Part shown: in pieces, positions 32,190 to 35,999 of the stretch | Layout: each line of letters starts with the position of its first letter | How positions within the stretch are numbered: position 1 is the stretch's first letter | NCBI RefSeq assembly: GCF_013315695.1 | Contig: NZ_CP054353.1 | DNA length: 64,000 nt | Reading direction: 5' to 3' (one strand) | Origin: Escherichia coli | GTDB taxonomy: Bacteria > Pseudomonadota > Gammaproteobacteria > Enterobacterales > Enterobacteriaceae | Made by a program: the position numbers and the translations under genes | Notes under the pieces: generated by a model | Database searches by the model: none | What the model saw: the letters and a program-made list of their open reading frames with translations, nothing else | What the model was told of the DNA's origin: nothing

Positions 32190-32468
32190 TCATCCGTCGT
32201 TGACAGCATAATCCTCTTTACTCTTAAAGTAGTAATAAAATGAGCCTTTAGGGACATTGGCATTTTTAACAATGGCATCGACTCCCGTCGCAAGAAAACC
32301 ATTCTGCGTCAGCAGTTCAAGGCCACTGCGGATCAGATCATTACGAGTATCTGCATAGGTACTTTCTGTCTTTCGCGGCCTTCCCCGGCCACGATTTTCG
32401 CCTGTCATGACCCATCTCCTACATTTTATTAACGCAAAAGAATAAGTGATTTTGCGCGAGAGCTTCAA
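32190..32468 (-). pseudogene. TetR-family transcriptional regulator, N-terminal HTH fragment
   Basis: HTH signature GFLATGVDAIVKNANVPKGSFYYYFKSKED; only about 90 aa, ligand-binding domain missing. Confidence 0.55.
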
Positions 32469-32655
32469 TCAGTTTATCCCCGCAGTGGCAAAGTGTTCGC
32501 TTTTGCCGACTGGACAGTGGCAGTGCCTGTCTCTACTGCGCCATCGCTGAACAGTGCAGAATTAGCAACGTTTGCTTTTGGCACAAAGCATACGCCCATT
32601 CTCACGCGAATGCTTTGCCCTTGACTTGCCAACAACCGAATTGCTTGCTCTGCAG

Positions 32656-33948
32656 CTATGTTTTTTTATTAGAATATTCGCCACTAAATAAATTATAATA
32701 AGTTGATTTTATTAGATATCTATCAGAATCTATATGGTCAGCACGAGTTGCATGCTCTAATGTTTCAAATGCCAGGGTATGTGCGGCTTCAGCAAATATC
32801 TCAGGCCAACCTTTACTCAGCATCGACAGTCCTTTAAGGACTCTTATCTGAATCTCCCTCATACTGGCACCATCGCGCGCGACAGGTGAGAAAAAGTCTT
32901 CCAGTAGATCGTTATTCTGAAGTGGTGCAACATGTACTGAAGGATATTTCACTTCTATTTCATCAGATTTATTCTGCGCGTAAGTGGAAAGTATACGAAC
33001 ACCTCTGCCAATGACATCAATGGCGGTTCCAGGATCGTTCACTGCAGGGGAAAGGGCCCGGCAGGCTATTTCGGCCATGACGCTAAGACAAAATCGAGGA
33101 TCCTGAGCAAATGAACGTGCATCCGAGACAATAATCGTCTCAAGTAAATCGGTGTTGATTGACGACTCCTGGCCCTGACTCAGGTACAAAACTGGCATGG
33201 ACGGATGTATGAAACTGCCTGGCTGCGCCACGAGGTATACATGACGGGGATCATTGGTCAGCAGCTTGCTAAGTTTCACCATATCAATATATTCAACATA
33301 GCCAATCTTCTTCGGATAAACTGCAACCGTTCCTTTCGGCTGTTCATTGTTCTCAAGCCATGGATATCCGCCGAGACAGGGATTTCTTGCTCTCGCAATA
33401 AATGTTTCGATGGCCGCCTGTTCTACTTGTGCCGTTGTCTCACCAACCCTCCCCAGAGAGGTCAAATGCTGTATCCAGCGAAGCAATGTGATGAGGATTA
33501 AGGCAATGACAACCAGTGTGACAATGAATAAAATGACTCTCCCCCTTTCTCCATAAGCTCCCATATTGAGGGCAATAATCCCTACCAGACTGAAGAGAAA
33601 AGAACCGATGAAGGTGGCCAGTACATTTTGTGTGGTGACGTCTTCAACAACTAAACGCGTAGCTCTGGGAGTCACATTAGTAGTGGCTGAACCGTAGGCT
33701 GTGACCATGATACTCAGCGAAAATGTGGTCACTGCCAGCATACTCGATGCCAGTATGTTCAGAATGTTATCGACTGCTTCCGCACCAACCTTCACGGAAA
33801 CCGACTCAGGTATCATTGATTTAAAAAGAATTGATAAAAGGGCCGTTATTATCGCGACAATTGCGAATAACGTTGCCCTGAACCATAGTTTTTTAATTGT
33901 CTGCTTCAGCATCCATTTCCAGCGTGAAATCATTCTGCATTCCCTCAT
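32656..33948 (-). CDS. DUF2254-like integral membrane protein
   Basis: N-terminal multi-TM region followed by large soluble domain; 430 aa. Confidence 0.55.
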   Translation of the reverse strand: MRECRMISRWKWMLKQTIKKLWFRATLFAIVAIITALLSILFKSMIPESVSVKVGAEAVDNILNILASSMLAVTTFSLSIMVTAYGSATTNVTPRATRLVVEDVTTQNVLATFIGSFLFSLVGIIALNMGAYGERGRVILFIVTLVVIALILITLLRWIQHLTSLGRVGETTAQVEQAAIETFIARARNPCLGGYPWLENNEQPKGTVAVYPKKIGYVEYIDMVKLSKLLTNDPRHVYLVAQPGSFIHPSMPVLYLSQGQESSINTDLLETIIVSDARSFAQDPRFCLSVMAEIACRALSPAVNDPGTAIDVIGRGVRILSTYAQNKSDEIEVKYPSVHVAPLQNNDLLEDFFSPVARDGASMREIQIRVLKGLSMLSKGWPEIFAEAAHTLAFETLEHATRADHIDSDRYLIKSTYYNLFSGEYSNKKT

Positions 33949-33995
33949 ATTGCGGCCGGGATAATAATTGCCGCCCCCAGGACGGCATGTTGCTA

Positions 33996-35999
33996 TTAAC
34001 GAACCAGGTGCAGGAAGTGCAGGTGTTTTTCGTACTGGTCCAGTATGTCATTAATCAGCTGTTCCTGGTTCCAGCCCATCACATCATAATTTTGACCGCC
34101 TTCTTTGAGATAAACCTCAGCGCGATAATATCGATGTTGTTCAGTCTGCTGCTCATCATTATCCATTGCGGCGAGCGCGAAGGTCGGTGAGATATACCCG
34201 CGAAGCCTCACTTCATATATAAAATTCAGCTCGTTGCCCAAATCGACTTCAAGACGAATACGATCGTCGACTGCATCACTAATGTGGCTTATCGTCCCCT
34301 GCTTGTTCAGTTCCTCCTGAACCAGCGTCATGGCAGGCTGGATAACGTCGTCCATAAAACGTTTCACAAGAGATCGCTTCGGCAGATACGCGATATTGCG
34401 TAACCTTCTCTGCCAAGGAATTGGGTTACGTGCAGCCGTAGGAGCAATTGTCGCCATGCTCAGGCTTTCACGCTTGGTCAAATCCCGGCGCAAAGCTTTT
34501 AAAAGTCCGTATATAGATATTAGTAAGATCACTGAGAAGGGCAATGCACTCGCTATTGTCACCGTTTGCAGCGCACTTAGCCCTCCGGCAAGGAGAAGCG
34601 CAATTGCAACAATGCCCATAAGCGAGGCCCAGAATATTCGCTGCCAGACGGGTGTGTTTGCCACTCCACCTGATGCCAGAGTATCCACAACCATTGCCCC
34701 CGAATCAGCAGACGTTACAAAGAAGACGATGACCATCGCCATTGCAATGAATGACAGCACAGAAGAGAACGGGAAATGCTCCAGGAAATTAAACAGGGCC
34801 AGCGCCACATCCTGCTGAACAGTATTGGCGAGGTCTGTGGCCCCCTGGTTCATAATGAGATAGATCGCGCTGTTACCAAACACCGTCATCCACATTAGCG
34901 TAAAACCCGCGGGAACAAACAGCACGCCGGTGACAAACTCGCGAATGGTTCGCCCGCGGGAGACCCGTGCGATGAACATCCCCACAAACGGCGACCATGA
35001 AAGCCACCATCCCCAGTACAGTAATGTCCAGCCCCCCAGCCAGTTGCTCGACTTGGGCTCATACGCGTAAAGGTTGAACGTTTTACTCACCAGTTCCGAA
35101 AGATAACCGCCCGTATTTTCCACAAATGACTTCAGCAGAAGCACGGTTGGTCCCAGACACAGGACCAGCGCCAGGAGCAACAAAGCCAGACCCAGATTGA
35201 GTTCAGACAGGATACGTATTCCCTTATCCAGACCGGACACCACTGAAATCGTCGCTAACCCCGTGATGACCACGATCAGAATTACCTGCACCGTTTCATT
35301 GATGGGCACCCCGAAAAGATGGTTCAAACCGGCATTCACCTGCAAAACACCGTAACCCAGTGATGTCGCAACGCCAAAGACCGTGCCTATAACAGCGAAA
35401 ATATCAACCGCATGTCCTACAGGTCCGTATATGCGATCGCCAATAATGGGATAGAGTGCGGAGCGCAGAGTTAAAGGCAGACCGTGACGGTAACTGAAGA
35501 ACGCCAGAATCAGCGCCACAATGGCATAAATTGCCCATGCGTGCAGTCCCCAGTGGAAAAAGGTCAGACGCATTGCTTCCTTAGCTGCCGCAACGGTTTC
35601 TGGAGTGCCAACGGGTGGCGAAAGATAATGCATTACAGGTTCGGCAACGCCAAAGAACATCAGGCCGATCCCCATCCCTGCCGAAAAAAGCATCGCAAAC
35701 CAGGAGTGGTAGCTGAAATCAGGCTGCGCATGGTCCGGGCCCAGCTTGATATCACCGTAGCGTGAGAGTCCAAGGAACGTGACACTCAGTAAAATCAGGG
35801 CCACAGCAAGGATGTAGAACCAGCTGGCATTCGTGAAGATTTGTTGCTGAAGTAGTTTAAAATTTTTGTCGGCGACATCCGGGAATACGGCGGCAAAGGC
35901 GACAAGAAGGAAAATTAGCAAAGCAGATGTAAAGAATACCGCTTTGTTAATCTGACTTGTAGACTTCTTTGGGATTGTATCATTTTCACTCATAATCAT
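33996..35999 (-). CDS. BCCT-family (betaine/carnitine/choline) transporter, BetT-like
   Basis: 667 aa, 12-TM core with W-rich BCCT signature segment and long C-terminal cytoplasmic extension. Confidence 0.8.
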   Translation of the reverse strand: MIMSENDTIPKKSTSQINKAVFFTSALLIFLLVAFAAVFPDVADKNFKLLQQQIFTNASWFYILAVALILLSVTFLGLSRYGDIKLGPDHAQPDFSYHSWFAMLFSAGMGIGLMFFGVAEPVMHYLSPPVGTPETVAAAKEAMRLTFFHWGLHAWAIYAIVALILAFFSYRHGLPLTLRSALYPIIGDRIYGPVGHAVDIFAVIGTVFGVATSLGYGVLQVNAGLNHLFGVPINETVQVILIVVITGLATISVVSGLDKGIRILSELNLGLALLLLALVLCLGPTVLLLKSFVENTGGYLSELVSKTFNLYAYEPKSSNWLGGWTLLYWGWWLSWSPFVGMFIARVSRGRTIREFVTGVLFVPAGFTLMWMTVFGNSAIYLIMNQGATDLANTVQQDVALALFNFLEHFPFSSVLSFIAMAMVIVFFVTSADSGAMVVDTLASGGVANTPVWQRIFWASLMGIVAIALLLAGGLSALQTVTIASALPFSVILLISIYGLLKALRRDLTKRESLSMATIAPTAARNPIPWQRRLRNIAYLPKRSLVKRFMDDVIQPAMTLVQEELNKQGTISHISDAVDDRIRLEVDLGNELNFIYEVRLRGYISPTFALAAMDNDEQQTEQHRYYRAEVYLKEGGQNYDVMGWNQEQLINDILDQYEKHLHFLHLVR

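Follow-up and report, generated by a model that had tools for sequence, protein, structure and literature searches.

An intact betU-DUF2254 osmoprotection module adjoins an IS-truncated acuR pseudogene in an Escherichia coli chromosomal island

The window analyzed here, a stretch of 64,000 nucleotides from the Escherichia coli contig NZ_CP054353.1, includes a region that is part of a chromosomal, IS-riddled island at tRNA-Leu(CAA). Within this region, the 3.9-kb stretch from 32205 to 36103 formed an IS-bounded mosaic of two unrelated pieces (Table 1). The three genes named in the original prediction, a TetR-family regulator fragment, a DUF2254 membrane protein gene, and a BCCT-family transporter gene, all lay on the minus strand at the positions originally assigned to them, and the profile E-values at the locus ranged from 5e-13 to 2e-198, far past chance. 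The IS600-like element on the betU side showed terminal repeats (TGAGGT...) at both ends and was located between the betU segment and lpxM/msbB2. The locus as a whole is ordinary, already described E. coli island DNA.

Table 1. Features of the betU-DUF2254-acuR′ locus and its IS boundaries (window coordinates)
Feature	Coordinates	Strand	Description
IS21-family (IS100kyp) remnant	31772..32205	+	3′ part of istB (ORF 31846-32139) and complete right terminal repeat, final bases ...CGTTGACA at 32205
acuR′ pseudogene	32190..32408	-	68 native codons (32205-32408) plus 4 codons and stop from the IS terminal repeat (32190-32204)
acuR native upstream region	32409..32580	-	Aligns with Enterobacter acuR upstream DNA (L006); travelled with acuR
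Module junction	32565..32597	.	Degenerate imperfect-palindrome repeat of ~30 bp where the betU-DUF2254 module ends on the DUF2254 side
DUF2254 membrane protein gene	32656..33933	-	Intact, 425 aa from the RefSeq start; alternative ATG at 33948
betU (BCCT-family betaine transporter)	33996..35993	-	Intact, 665 aa; alternative ATG at 35999
betU native upstream DNA, 110 bp	35994..36103	-	Upstream-region alignments; blocks conserved among divergent betU loci (TTTGCTAC, AATGGAAT)
IS3-family element (IS600-like)	36104..37350	-	Pfam rve, HTH_Tnp_1, and related domains; RefSeq annotation; bounds the segment upstream of betU

Both transporter-side genes were intact, as had been predicted. The product of the longer BCCT ORF (33996-35999) covered the entire Pfam BCCT profile (660 bits; profile positions 1-485 of 485, residues 21-506) and extended ~160 aa beyond the Pfam domain as a C-terminal tail, and the product of the longer DUF2254 ORF (32656-33948) was also full length on PF10011 (312 bits; profile positions 3-366 of 368). 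When read from the RefSeq starts, the two proteins were exact matches of WP_000625669.1 (DUF2254) and WP_001293435.1 (BCCT), each of which is encoded on at least 1,000 contigs. The BCCT protein was identical at 663 of 665 residues to BetU of Tn6062, located on an IncHI1 plasmid of S. Typhi and recognized through the exact position of a primer published in PMC3139670, and the DUF2254 protein was 97% identical to its Tn6062 counterpart. BetU was 42% identical to K-12 BetT over its full length, with the alignment including the tail and reaching the last residue, and the two proteins fell into the same NCBIfam subfamily (751 bits; cut-off, 695). The protein aligned end to end with PDB 8ybq (residues 9-665), and DddT structures were among the BCCT structural matches; on the NCBIfam glycine-betaine BCCT equivalog it scored 592 bits, below the cut-off of 650. 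Judged by these sequence comparisons, the window transporter is BetU, and the original description of an island-borne accessory osmolyte uptake system with a long, BetT-type C-terminal tail was correct. BetU has reportedly been described from E. coli pyelonephritis isolates (Ly et al. 2004, J Bacteriol 186:296). In the passage of PMC3139670 that cites Ly et al. 2004, the substrates of BetU are given as glycine betaine and proline betaine, not choline, and the designation “choline BCCT transporter BetT” in RefSeq is probably too specific. A clone of the two Tn6062 genes enabled S. Typhi to grow in 0.8 M NaCl (PMC3139670), and mapping of the primer placed the start of this clone 73 bp upstream of the betU ATG. 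In addition, betU on the KPC plasmid pBIC1a was transcribed in E. coli TOP10 (PMC6286996).

The betU and DUF2254 genes were adjacent, ~60 bp apart, in homologs ranging from 100% down to ~65% protein identity, and this adjacency spanned at least four unrelated chromosomal contexts and ~1,470 plasmids. DUF2254 might be a functional partner of BetU, such as an accessory or regulatory membrane subunit, or might supply a second osmoprotective activity, and we consider such a role doubtful. The sole functional test, that of the Tn6062 clone, included both genes, which fits the partnership. Against it, homologs of DUF2254 occur alone once identity falls to 63% or lower, and in several hundred E. coli genomes, including BL21, the DUF2254 gene beside betU is truncated. 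No recognizable solved structural relative of DUF2254 was found, nor was any functional work on it found in the literature that mentions DUF2254. The contribution of the linked DUF2254 gene is the one lead at this locus that goes beyond annotation.

The regulator ORF extended from 32190 to 32468 (92 aa), and homologs supported the ATG at 32408 as its start, giving a product of 72 aa. Its Pfam match was to TetR_N only (49.1 bits; cut-off, 24; residues 45-86 of the 92-aa ORF). All 68 native residues of the fragment were identical to residues 1-68 of a full-length protein of 218 aa, and DNA homology with this full-length acuR allele ended at 32205. The full-length allele passed the NCBIfam AcuR equivalog NF051457 (266 bits; cut-off, 247), contained TetR_C_13, and aligned over residues 7-202 with 3bru, the best PDB match of the regulator (E = 7e-48). 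The window fragment scored 92 bits against the same cut-off of 247, below the equivalog threshold, and lacked the C-terminal ligand-binding/dimerization domain. In the window, a gene of the AcuR-equivalog family has been reduced to a pseudogene that retains only the HTH region.

The end of acuR homology was also an IS end. The right terminal repeat of the IS21-family element occupied 32140-32205, and IS100kyp copies in other genomes matched the window (32100-32205) to exactly position 32205. The IstB C-terminal fragment (31846-32139) matched Pfam IstB_IS21 (148 bits; profile positions 152-238 of 238), and RefSeq annotates the same place in EcPF7 as “IS100kyp family helper ATPase IstB, missing N-terminus.” The element here is incomplete, consisting of the last ~88 istB codons and the right terminal repeat only, rather than istA and istB between terminal repeats. 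The predicted truncation of a TetR-family gene to its HTH region, with its 3′ end abutting an IS21 remnant, was thus borne out by the alignments, and full-length homologs were not as short as the fragment (218 aa versus 68 native residues).

A different partner for the regulator was found in Enterobacter, where, on six contigs, a protein of 218 aa that is at least 90% identical to the E. coli one and in the same 90% cluster is encoded convergently with a 327-aa gene passing the AcuI equivalog (481 bits versus 440). No BCCT or DUF2254 gene was found within 8 kb of acuR on these six contigs. The “full” acuR alleles of E. coli retain only ~290 bp of acuI, and the window has no acuI. The only good palindrome upstream of acuR was GCAAAA-N10-TTTTGC at 32434-32455, a candidate operator; the window and the Enterobacter locus L006 each had a single copy, at the corresponding position, and no second copy was found near betU or elsewhere in the window.

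The two pieces of the mosaic met at ~32580, where homology with the plasmid betU-DUF2254 module ended and homology with acuR loci started. The segment from 32409 to this point did not align with plasmid DNA downstream of DUF2254, and the switch therefore implies that acuR brought ~170 bp of its own upstream DNA. On the Klebsiella plasmid examined (L003), direct copies of the ~30-bp junction repeat lay on either side of the module, and the window had one copy; no flanking repeats were found around the pair in three native contexts, the Leclercia, K. pasteurii, and Serratia chromosomes. An Rfam scan of 31500-36500 at E ≤ 1 returned no RNA family, and the junction hairpins are therefore not a known riboswitch or sRNA.

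A total of 1,471 plasmids contained ≥80% of the betU-DUF2254 pair. Annotation was inspected for three plasmid loci (L003, L013, and pBIC1a), and no TetR gene lay beside the pair at any of them; none adjoined it on the Serratia, Leclercia, K. pasteurii, and Citrobacter chromosomes, which represent four different contexts. Among 5,426 complete E. coli genomes, the module was present in 1,964, full-length acuR in 663, and the same IS100/acuR junction in 224; full-length acuR in E. coli was almost always located directly downstream of DUF2254. The phytase-like and YmgB genes of the window were considered as possible marks of an ancestral island shared with the Serratia betU island, an idea rejected because the phytase-like proteins were only 27% identical over 147 aa.

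Upstream of betU, homology with the plasmid copies ended exactly at the IS600-like end, and all blocks conserved among divergent betU loci fell within the retained 110 bp. A scan for consensus promoters and terminators gave counts equal to the shuffled expectation, with no minus-strand promoter upstream of betU. Expression of betU most likely starts from the conserved ~110 bp directly upstream, which are still present in the window. An effect of the IS600 copy, which lies 110 bp upstream, on betU expression is conceivable.

The original prediction held that truncation of the regulator may have deregulated the transporter genes. Deregulation of betU by this route is unlikely, because the conserved partner of AcuR is acuI, the acuR piece and the transporter pair have separate origins and meet at ~32580, and the pair exists elsewhere without an adjoining TetR gene. 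In its full form, the idea would make the TetR protein a repressor of a DUF2254-BCCT operon, with the IS truncation leading to constitutive transporter expression. The fragment does lie next to the transporter genes on the same strand, the BCCT gene betT of K-12 is controlled by the TetR-family protein BetI, and full acuR is nearly always beside DUF2254 in E. coli genomes. However, the regulator scored far below the BetI models (29.7 bits versus 201.3 for TIGR03384 and 26.9 versus 118 for NF001978), was 24% identical to BetI over the HTH only, and belongs to the AcuR equivalog paired with acuI in Enterobacter; its gene follows the transporter genes in the same direction instead of diverging from them, and has an upstream region that it brought along; the palindrome of that region has no copy near betU; and the pair is functional without acuR, betU being transcribed and osmotolerance conferred where no TetR gene adjoins (PMC3139670; PMC6286996). 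Repression of the pair by this protein is accordingly very improbable, and AcuR probably exerts no control over betU. AcuR-type regulators do occur in DMSP/acrylate pathways, where substrate import is carried out by BCCT transporters (PMC3017554), and an AcuR-transporter link is therefore not absurd. Given the near-constant position of E. coli acuR downstream of DUF2254, a regulatory link may conceivably have been acquired.

Two further alternatives concern the ends of the segment. If betU expression has been altered, the IS600-like element rather than the TetR stump might be responsible, through loss of distal regulatory DNA or transposase read-through: the element ends at 36104, its transposase is co-directional with betU, the plasmid-copy homology breaks exactly there, and the upstream copy of the plasmid flanking repeat is missing in the window. 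Such an effect is improbable, however, since the conserved betU-upstream blocks are all retained, the functional clone had just 73 bp of betU upstream DNA, and the scan revealed no outward promoter. Moreover, acuR-full E. coli genomes, as far as they were listed or inspected, had the same IS600-like junction, which is therefore an old, common state. At the other end, an HTH-only product of 72 aa might still be made and be active, for instance by sitting on the acuR operator or by disturbing the action of a different TetR protein; its native upstream region, Shine-Dalgarno sequence, and start codon are intact, and it is encoded on at least 1,000 contigs. TetR proteins dimerize through their C-terminal domain and bind DNA in that form; this product lacks the domain. 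Clonal inheritance of the junction found in 224 genomes accounts for the abundance of the product, and no second AcuR-type gene or operator that could serve as its target was found within the window, which leaves an active stump barely conceivable.

The reading that we favor, with a probability of roughly 0.8, is that the locus is a two-piece mosaic in which a betU-DUF2254 osmoprotection module adjoins an IS-cut acuR stump that would have no expected effect on betU. One piece is the two-gene module, a widely mobile osmoprotection unit in which BetU, a secondary transporter of the BCCT family, would import glycine betaine and proline betaine (the substrates as cited in PMC3139670) and its cytoplasmic C-terminal domain of ~160 aa would, as in BetT, mediate the osmotic activation seen in the subfamily. 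The other piece comprises the first 68 acuR codons and ~170 bp of native upstream DNA, the remains of a gene for an acrylate-responsive TetR-family repressor whose ancestral partner is the convergent acrylyl-CoA reductase gene acuI. Recombination at the short palindromic repeat may have attached an acuR-acuI fragment to the module at its DUF2254 end; later, in the window lineage, IS100kyp would have been inserted at acuR codon 68/69, and finally most of IS100kyp would have been lost. The stump left behind lacks any ligand-binding or dimerization domain, and its loss of function would be expected to leave betU unaffected.

By these findings, what is annotated as a “TetR fragment” across hundreds of E. 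coli genomes is an acuR pseudogene, and betU is the gene that often goes under the name “choline transporter BetT.” BetU is relevant to osmotolerance, both of pathogens and of resistance plasmids (S. Typhi H58 IncHI1 and Klebsiella IncF plasmids). The plausible story of a lost repressor appears to be a neighborhood artefact of an IS-scrambled island.

Four known systems resemble parts of this locus. AcuR of Rhodobacter sphaeroides (acuR-acuI-dddL operon; PMC3017554; PDB 3bru) is matched by the full-length allele, which passes the AcuR model and aligns with 3bru, whereas the window keeps residues 1-68 only and has lost acuI. Enterobacterial acuI is convergent with acuR, in contrast to the single operon of R. 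sphaeroides, and acuR here, unlike its R. sphaeroides counterpart, has a Shine-Dalgarno sequence, which means that its mRNA has a leader. Inspection of the acuR upstream sequence by eye did not reveal TAATAGAC-N6-GTCTATTA, the operator of R. sphaeroides, and the candidate operator is a different palindrome. BetI, the choline-sensing repressor of betT, is likewise a TetR-family HTH regulator beside a BCCT gene, but the orientations differ, betI and betT being divergent and acuR lying co-directionally downstream of the transporter genes. K-12 BetT itself, the choline:H+ symporter of the betTIBA locus, shares the BCCT family and the C-terminal regulatory tail with BetU, which differs in lying away from betIBA and in having no BetI-type regulator. 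The fourth system is Tn6062 of S. Typhi IncHI1 PST6 plasmids (Holt et al. 2011, PMC3139670), in which gene order and spacing are the same and the BCCT and DUF2254 proteins are 99.7% and 97% identical, respectively, to those of the window. Tn6062 resides on a conjugative plasmid and has an IS1 copy at each end, whereas the window pair is chromosomal and has, in place of the two IS1 copies, the IS600-like element on one side and acuR′/IS100kyp on the other.

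The region was found to be a known accessory osmoprotection module, consisting of the BCCT transporter gene betU and a DUF2254 membrane protein gene, adjoining an acuR pseudogene truncated by an insertion sequence, within a tRNA-Leu island scrambled by such elements. All three minus-strand ORFs of the original prediction were present where it had placed them. The two module genes were undisrupted, being full length in Pfam searches (DUF2254, 312 bits; BCCT, 660 bits over the whole profile) and encoding proteins identical to WP_000625669.1 (DUF2254) and WP_001293435.1 (BCCT). Of 5,426 E. 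coli genomes that are complete, 1,964 had some match to the module, 1,378 had both genes covered to at least 80%, 663 kept the 3' part of acuR and hence the full-length gene, and 224 had the exact IS100/acuR junction of the window. Ly et al. in 2004 reportedly noted insertion sequences on the flanks of betU and its occurrence in roughly one-third of E. coli strains, a prevalence that agrees with the 1,964 genomes matched here.

The sole Pfam match of the regulator ORF (32190-32468) was the N-terminal helix-turn-helix (HTH) domain TetR_N (49 bits), and residues 1 to 68 from the homolog-supported start, an ATG at 32408, matched a 218-aa protein of other E. coli at 100%. DNA identity to the full-length acuR allele ran to 32205 and no further, and the right terminal repeat of an IS21-family element, with the end ...CGTTGACA, finished at that base. 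The last ~88 istB codons preceded this repeat (Pfam IstB_IS21, profile positions 152-238 of 238), RefSeq annotated the fragment as a partial IS100kyp IstB, and the match of complete IS100kyp copies in other genomes to the window ended at exactly 32205. A TetR-family regulator cut down to its HTH domain against an IS21 remnant had therefore been correctly recognized, and its full-length homolog is not similarly short. Because acuR homology stops where the terminal repeat begins, the first 68 codons of the ORF are native, and the insertion sequence end supplies four more and the stop. The stump, devoid of the dimerization and ligand-binding domains, should be inert. Its 72-aa product was on record in at least 1,000 contigs, and the IS100/acuR junction is a lineage marker rather than a singular event. 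In an otherwise identical E. coli locus (NZ_CP128951.1, 4608-7100), two extra IS3-family copies lay right at the acuR' start codon, in the gap separating acuR' from DUF2254; this intergenic region is thus evidently a continuing target of insertion.

The full-length 218-aa allele passed the NCBI equivalog model for AcuR, the acrylate-utilization regulator (266 bits; cut-off, 247), and its closest solved structure was Rhodobacter sphaeroides 3bru (E = 7e-48), with NemR next. On the models for BetI, the TetR-family regulator of K-12 betT, it scored far under the cut-off, and its identity to BetI was 24% and confined to the HTH. In six Enterobacter contigs traced, a 218-aa protein of the same 90%-identity cluster was encoded with variable upstream neighbors and no nearby BCCT or DUF2254 gene, always convergent with a gene for a 327-aa protein that passed the AcuI (acrylyl-CoA reductase) equivalog (481 bits; cut-off, 440). 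Sullivan et al. (PMC3017554) describe this acuR-acuI pairing as widespread. Where E. coli strains carried acuR at full length, only the final ~290 bp of acuI remained, with an internal stop, indicating that decay of the acuR-acuI fragment was already under way when IS100 interrupted acuR in the window's lineage.

Full-length acuR in E. coli nearly always adjoined DUF2254, which makes a regulatory link conceivable though unlikely; the junction between them pointed to separate origins. From DUF2254 down to ~32580 the window tracked the Klebsiella plasmid copy of the pair, with plasmid matches ending at 32574-32656, and from ~32580 to the acuR start it tracked the Enterobacter acuR locus; acuR therefore brought along ~170 bp of upstream sequence native to it. 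An imperfect palindrome of ~30 bp, CAGCGTCYGCWTWTGGCACAAMGCAGACG, formed direct repeats flanking the pair on a Klebsiella IncFII plasmid (locus L003, 4986-5017 and 8648-8679), and the window had one copy, on the DUF2254 side only. A related half-copy, native upstream of Enterobacter acuR (locus L006, 7825-7839), coincided exactly with the homology switch, which suggests recombination at this repeat as the event that joined the two pieces. The palindrome had no Rfam match and was missing from the native chromosomal betU loci examined (Leclercia, K. pasteurii, and Serratia).

AcuR regulators belong to DMSP/acrylate pathways, which use BCCT importers, a further reason why such a link is conceivable. 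In the window, acuR ran in the same direction as the transporter genes and lay downstream of them, neither upstream nor divergent. The pair was found on 1,471 plasmids, most of them of the Klebsiella IncF type, with no TetR gene beside it in the three plasmid loci inspected, and it likewise occurred without a TetR gene in a Serratia ureilytica island that bears an integrase and on the chromosomes of Leclercia, Klebsiella pasteurii, and Citrobacter, each time in a different setting. It is functional without acuR in Tn6062, the IS1-flanked unit of an S. Typhi IncHI1 plasmid, and E. coli TOP10 transcribed the betU of a KPC plasmid (PMC6286996). Upstream of acuR there was one good palindrome, GCAAAA-N10-TTTTGC, which was conserved in Enterobacter; it had no second copy within the window, and the short inverted repeats near betU were unrelated to it. 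Given the separate origins, the gene arrangement, the presence and function of the pair without a TetR gene, and the lack of a shared operator, the evidence says that acuR and the pair are not one unit, and the proposed deregulation was not supported.

The gap between betU and DUF2254 was 62 bp, and the two are probably a single operon. The 110 bp retained between the betU start and the IS600-like element contained all blocks conserved among divergent betU loci, covered the 73 bp sufficient in the published clone, and probably includes the betU promoter; a consensus promoter scan did not detect it. Control of activity through the C-terminal domain is established for BetT-type BCCT transporters, and from this family knowledge BetU would be expected to be controlled largely post-translationally through that domain. 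DUF2254 is widespread across Proteobacteria; its linkage to a BCCT gene was kept from 100% to ~65% identity and absent at ≤63% (Pantoea, Serratia marcescens, Alloalcanivorax, and Paraburkholderia). An intact betU stood beside a DUF2254 gene truncated after ~118 codons (33594-35993 equivalent) in several hundred E. coli genomes, BL21 among them, which argues that BetU is not strictly dependent on DUF2254. In the predicted DUF2254 structure, a reasonable model, four long helices lay toward the N terminus and an alpha/beta domain was modeled with confidence at the C terminus; it had no informative structural neighbors. With the BetU module already known, the role of DUF2254 is the sole part of the finding with residual novelty.

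The 20 kb around the region was 99.9% identical to E. coli chromosomes, the closest being that of urinary isolate EcPF7, and most of this stretch was present in enteroaggregative E. coli 042. RefSeq annotation of EcPF7 placed the region in an island beside a tRNA-Leu gene, together with dense insertion-sequence debris, the Kiwa pair, an Eco29kI restriction system, shf-capU-virK-lpxM, and the fec operon. The shf-capU-virK-lpxM cluster, familiar from Shigella and enteroaggregative E. coli virulence plasmids, was chromosomal here and lay directly past the IS600-like element.

Features of the tRNA-Leu island and the betU region (window positions)
Feature	Position	Strand	Basis or remark
tRNA-Leu(CAA)	15271-15355		ARAGORN
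Eco29kI-type methyltransferase and endonuclease	~15857-17745		RefSeq annotation of EcPF7 region
Kiwa anti-phage pair kwaB, kwaA	21996-23572	-	RefSeq annotation of matching EcPF7 region; same tRNA-Leu island
Nested insertion-sequence debris	28685-31743		
ISEc45 (IS110 family), intact	30361-31494		Splits IS66-family element (ISEc23-like)
IS66 transposase C-terminal tail, resumed	31558-31743		Abuts IS100kyp remnant
IS21-family right terminal repeat	32140-32205		
acuR' stump	32190-32408	-	
Palindrome upstream of acuR	32434-32455		
Imperfect palindrome, ~30 bp	32565-32597		
DUF2254 gene	32656-33933	-	425 aa
betU	33996-35993	-	665 aa
End of IS600-like element	36104		
shf (polysaccharide deacetylase)-capU-virK-lpxM (msbB2)	37467-41343	-	
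fecIRABCDE operon	~43644-51189		After shf-capU-virK-lpxM

The BCCT protein was 42% identical to K-12 BetT end to end, including the ~160-aa C-terminal tail, and its alignment with 8ybq, a solved BCCT transporter of 685 aa, spanned both ends. It passed the NCBI BetT subfamily model and did not pass the glycine-betaine equivalog. RefSeq names WP_001293435.1 either "choline BCCT transporter BetT" or "BCCT family transporter"; the choline/BetT label is probably over-specific, since the literature has this protein as the betaine transporter BetU. The prediction of an island-borne accessory osmolyte uptake system with a long tail was borne out by comparison with the two-gene S. Typhi unit, whose BCCT protein was identical at 663 of 665 residues and whose DUF2254 protein was 97% identical. 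A published Tn6062 cloning primer matched that plasmid locus exactly, 52 to 73 bp upstream of the start codon, identifying the unit as Tn6062. Both Tn6062 genes in pACYC184 conferred growth of S. Typhi at 0.8 M NaCl, and the transporter was identified as BetU, a betaine uptake system first known from E. coli pyelonephritis isolates (Holt et al., PMC3139670). A 2026 paper likewise describes BetU as an extra glycine betaine importer with an osmoregulatory role in such isolates (PMC13300293).
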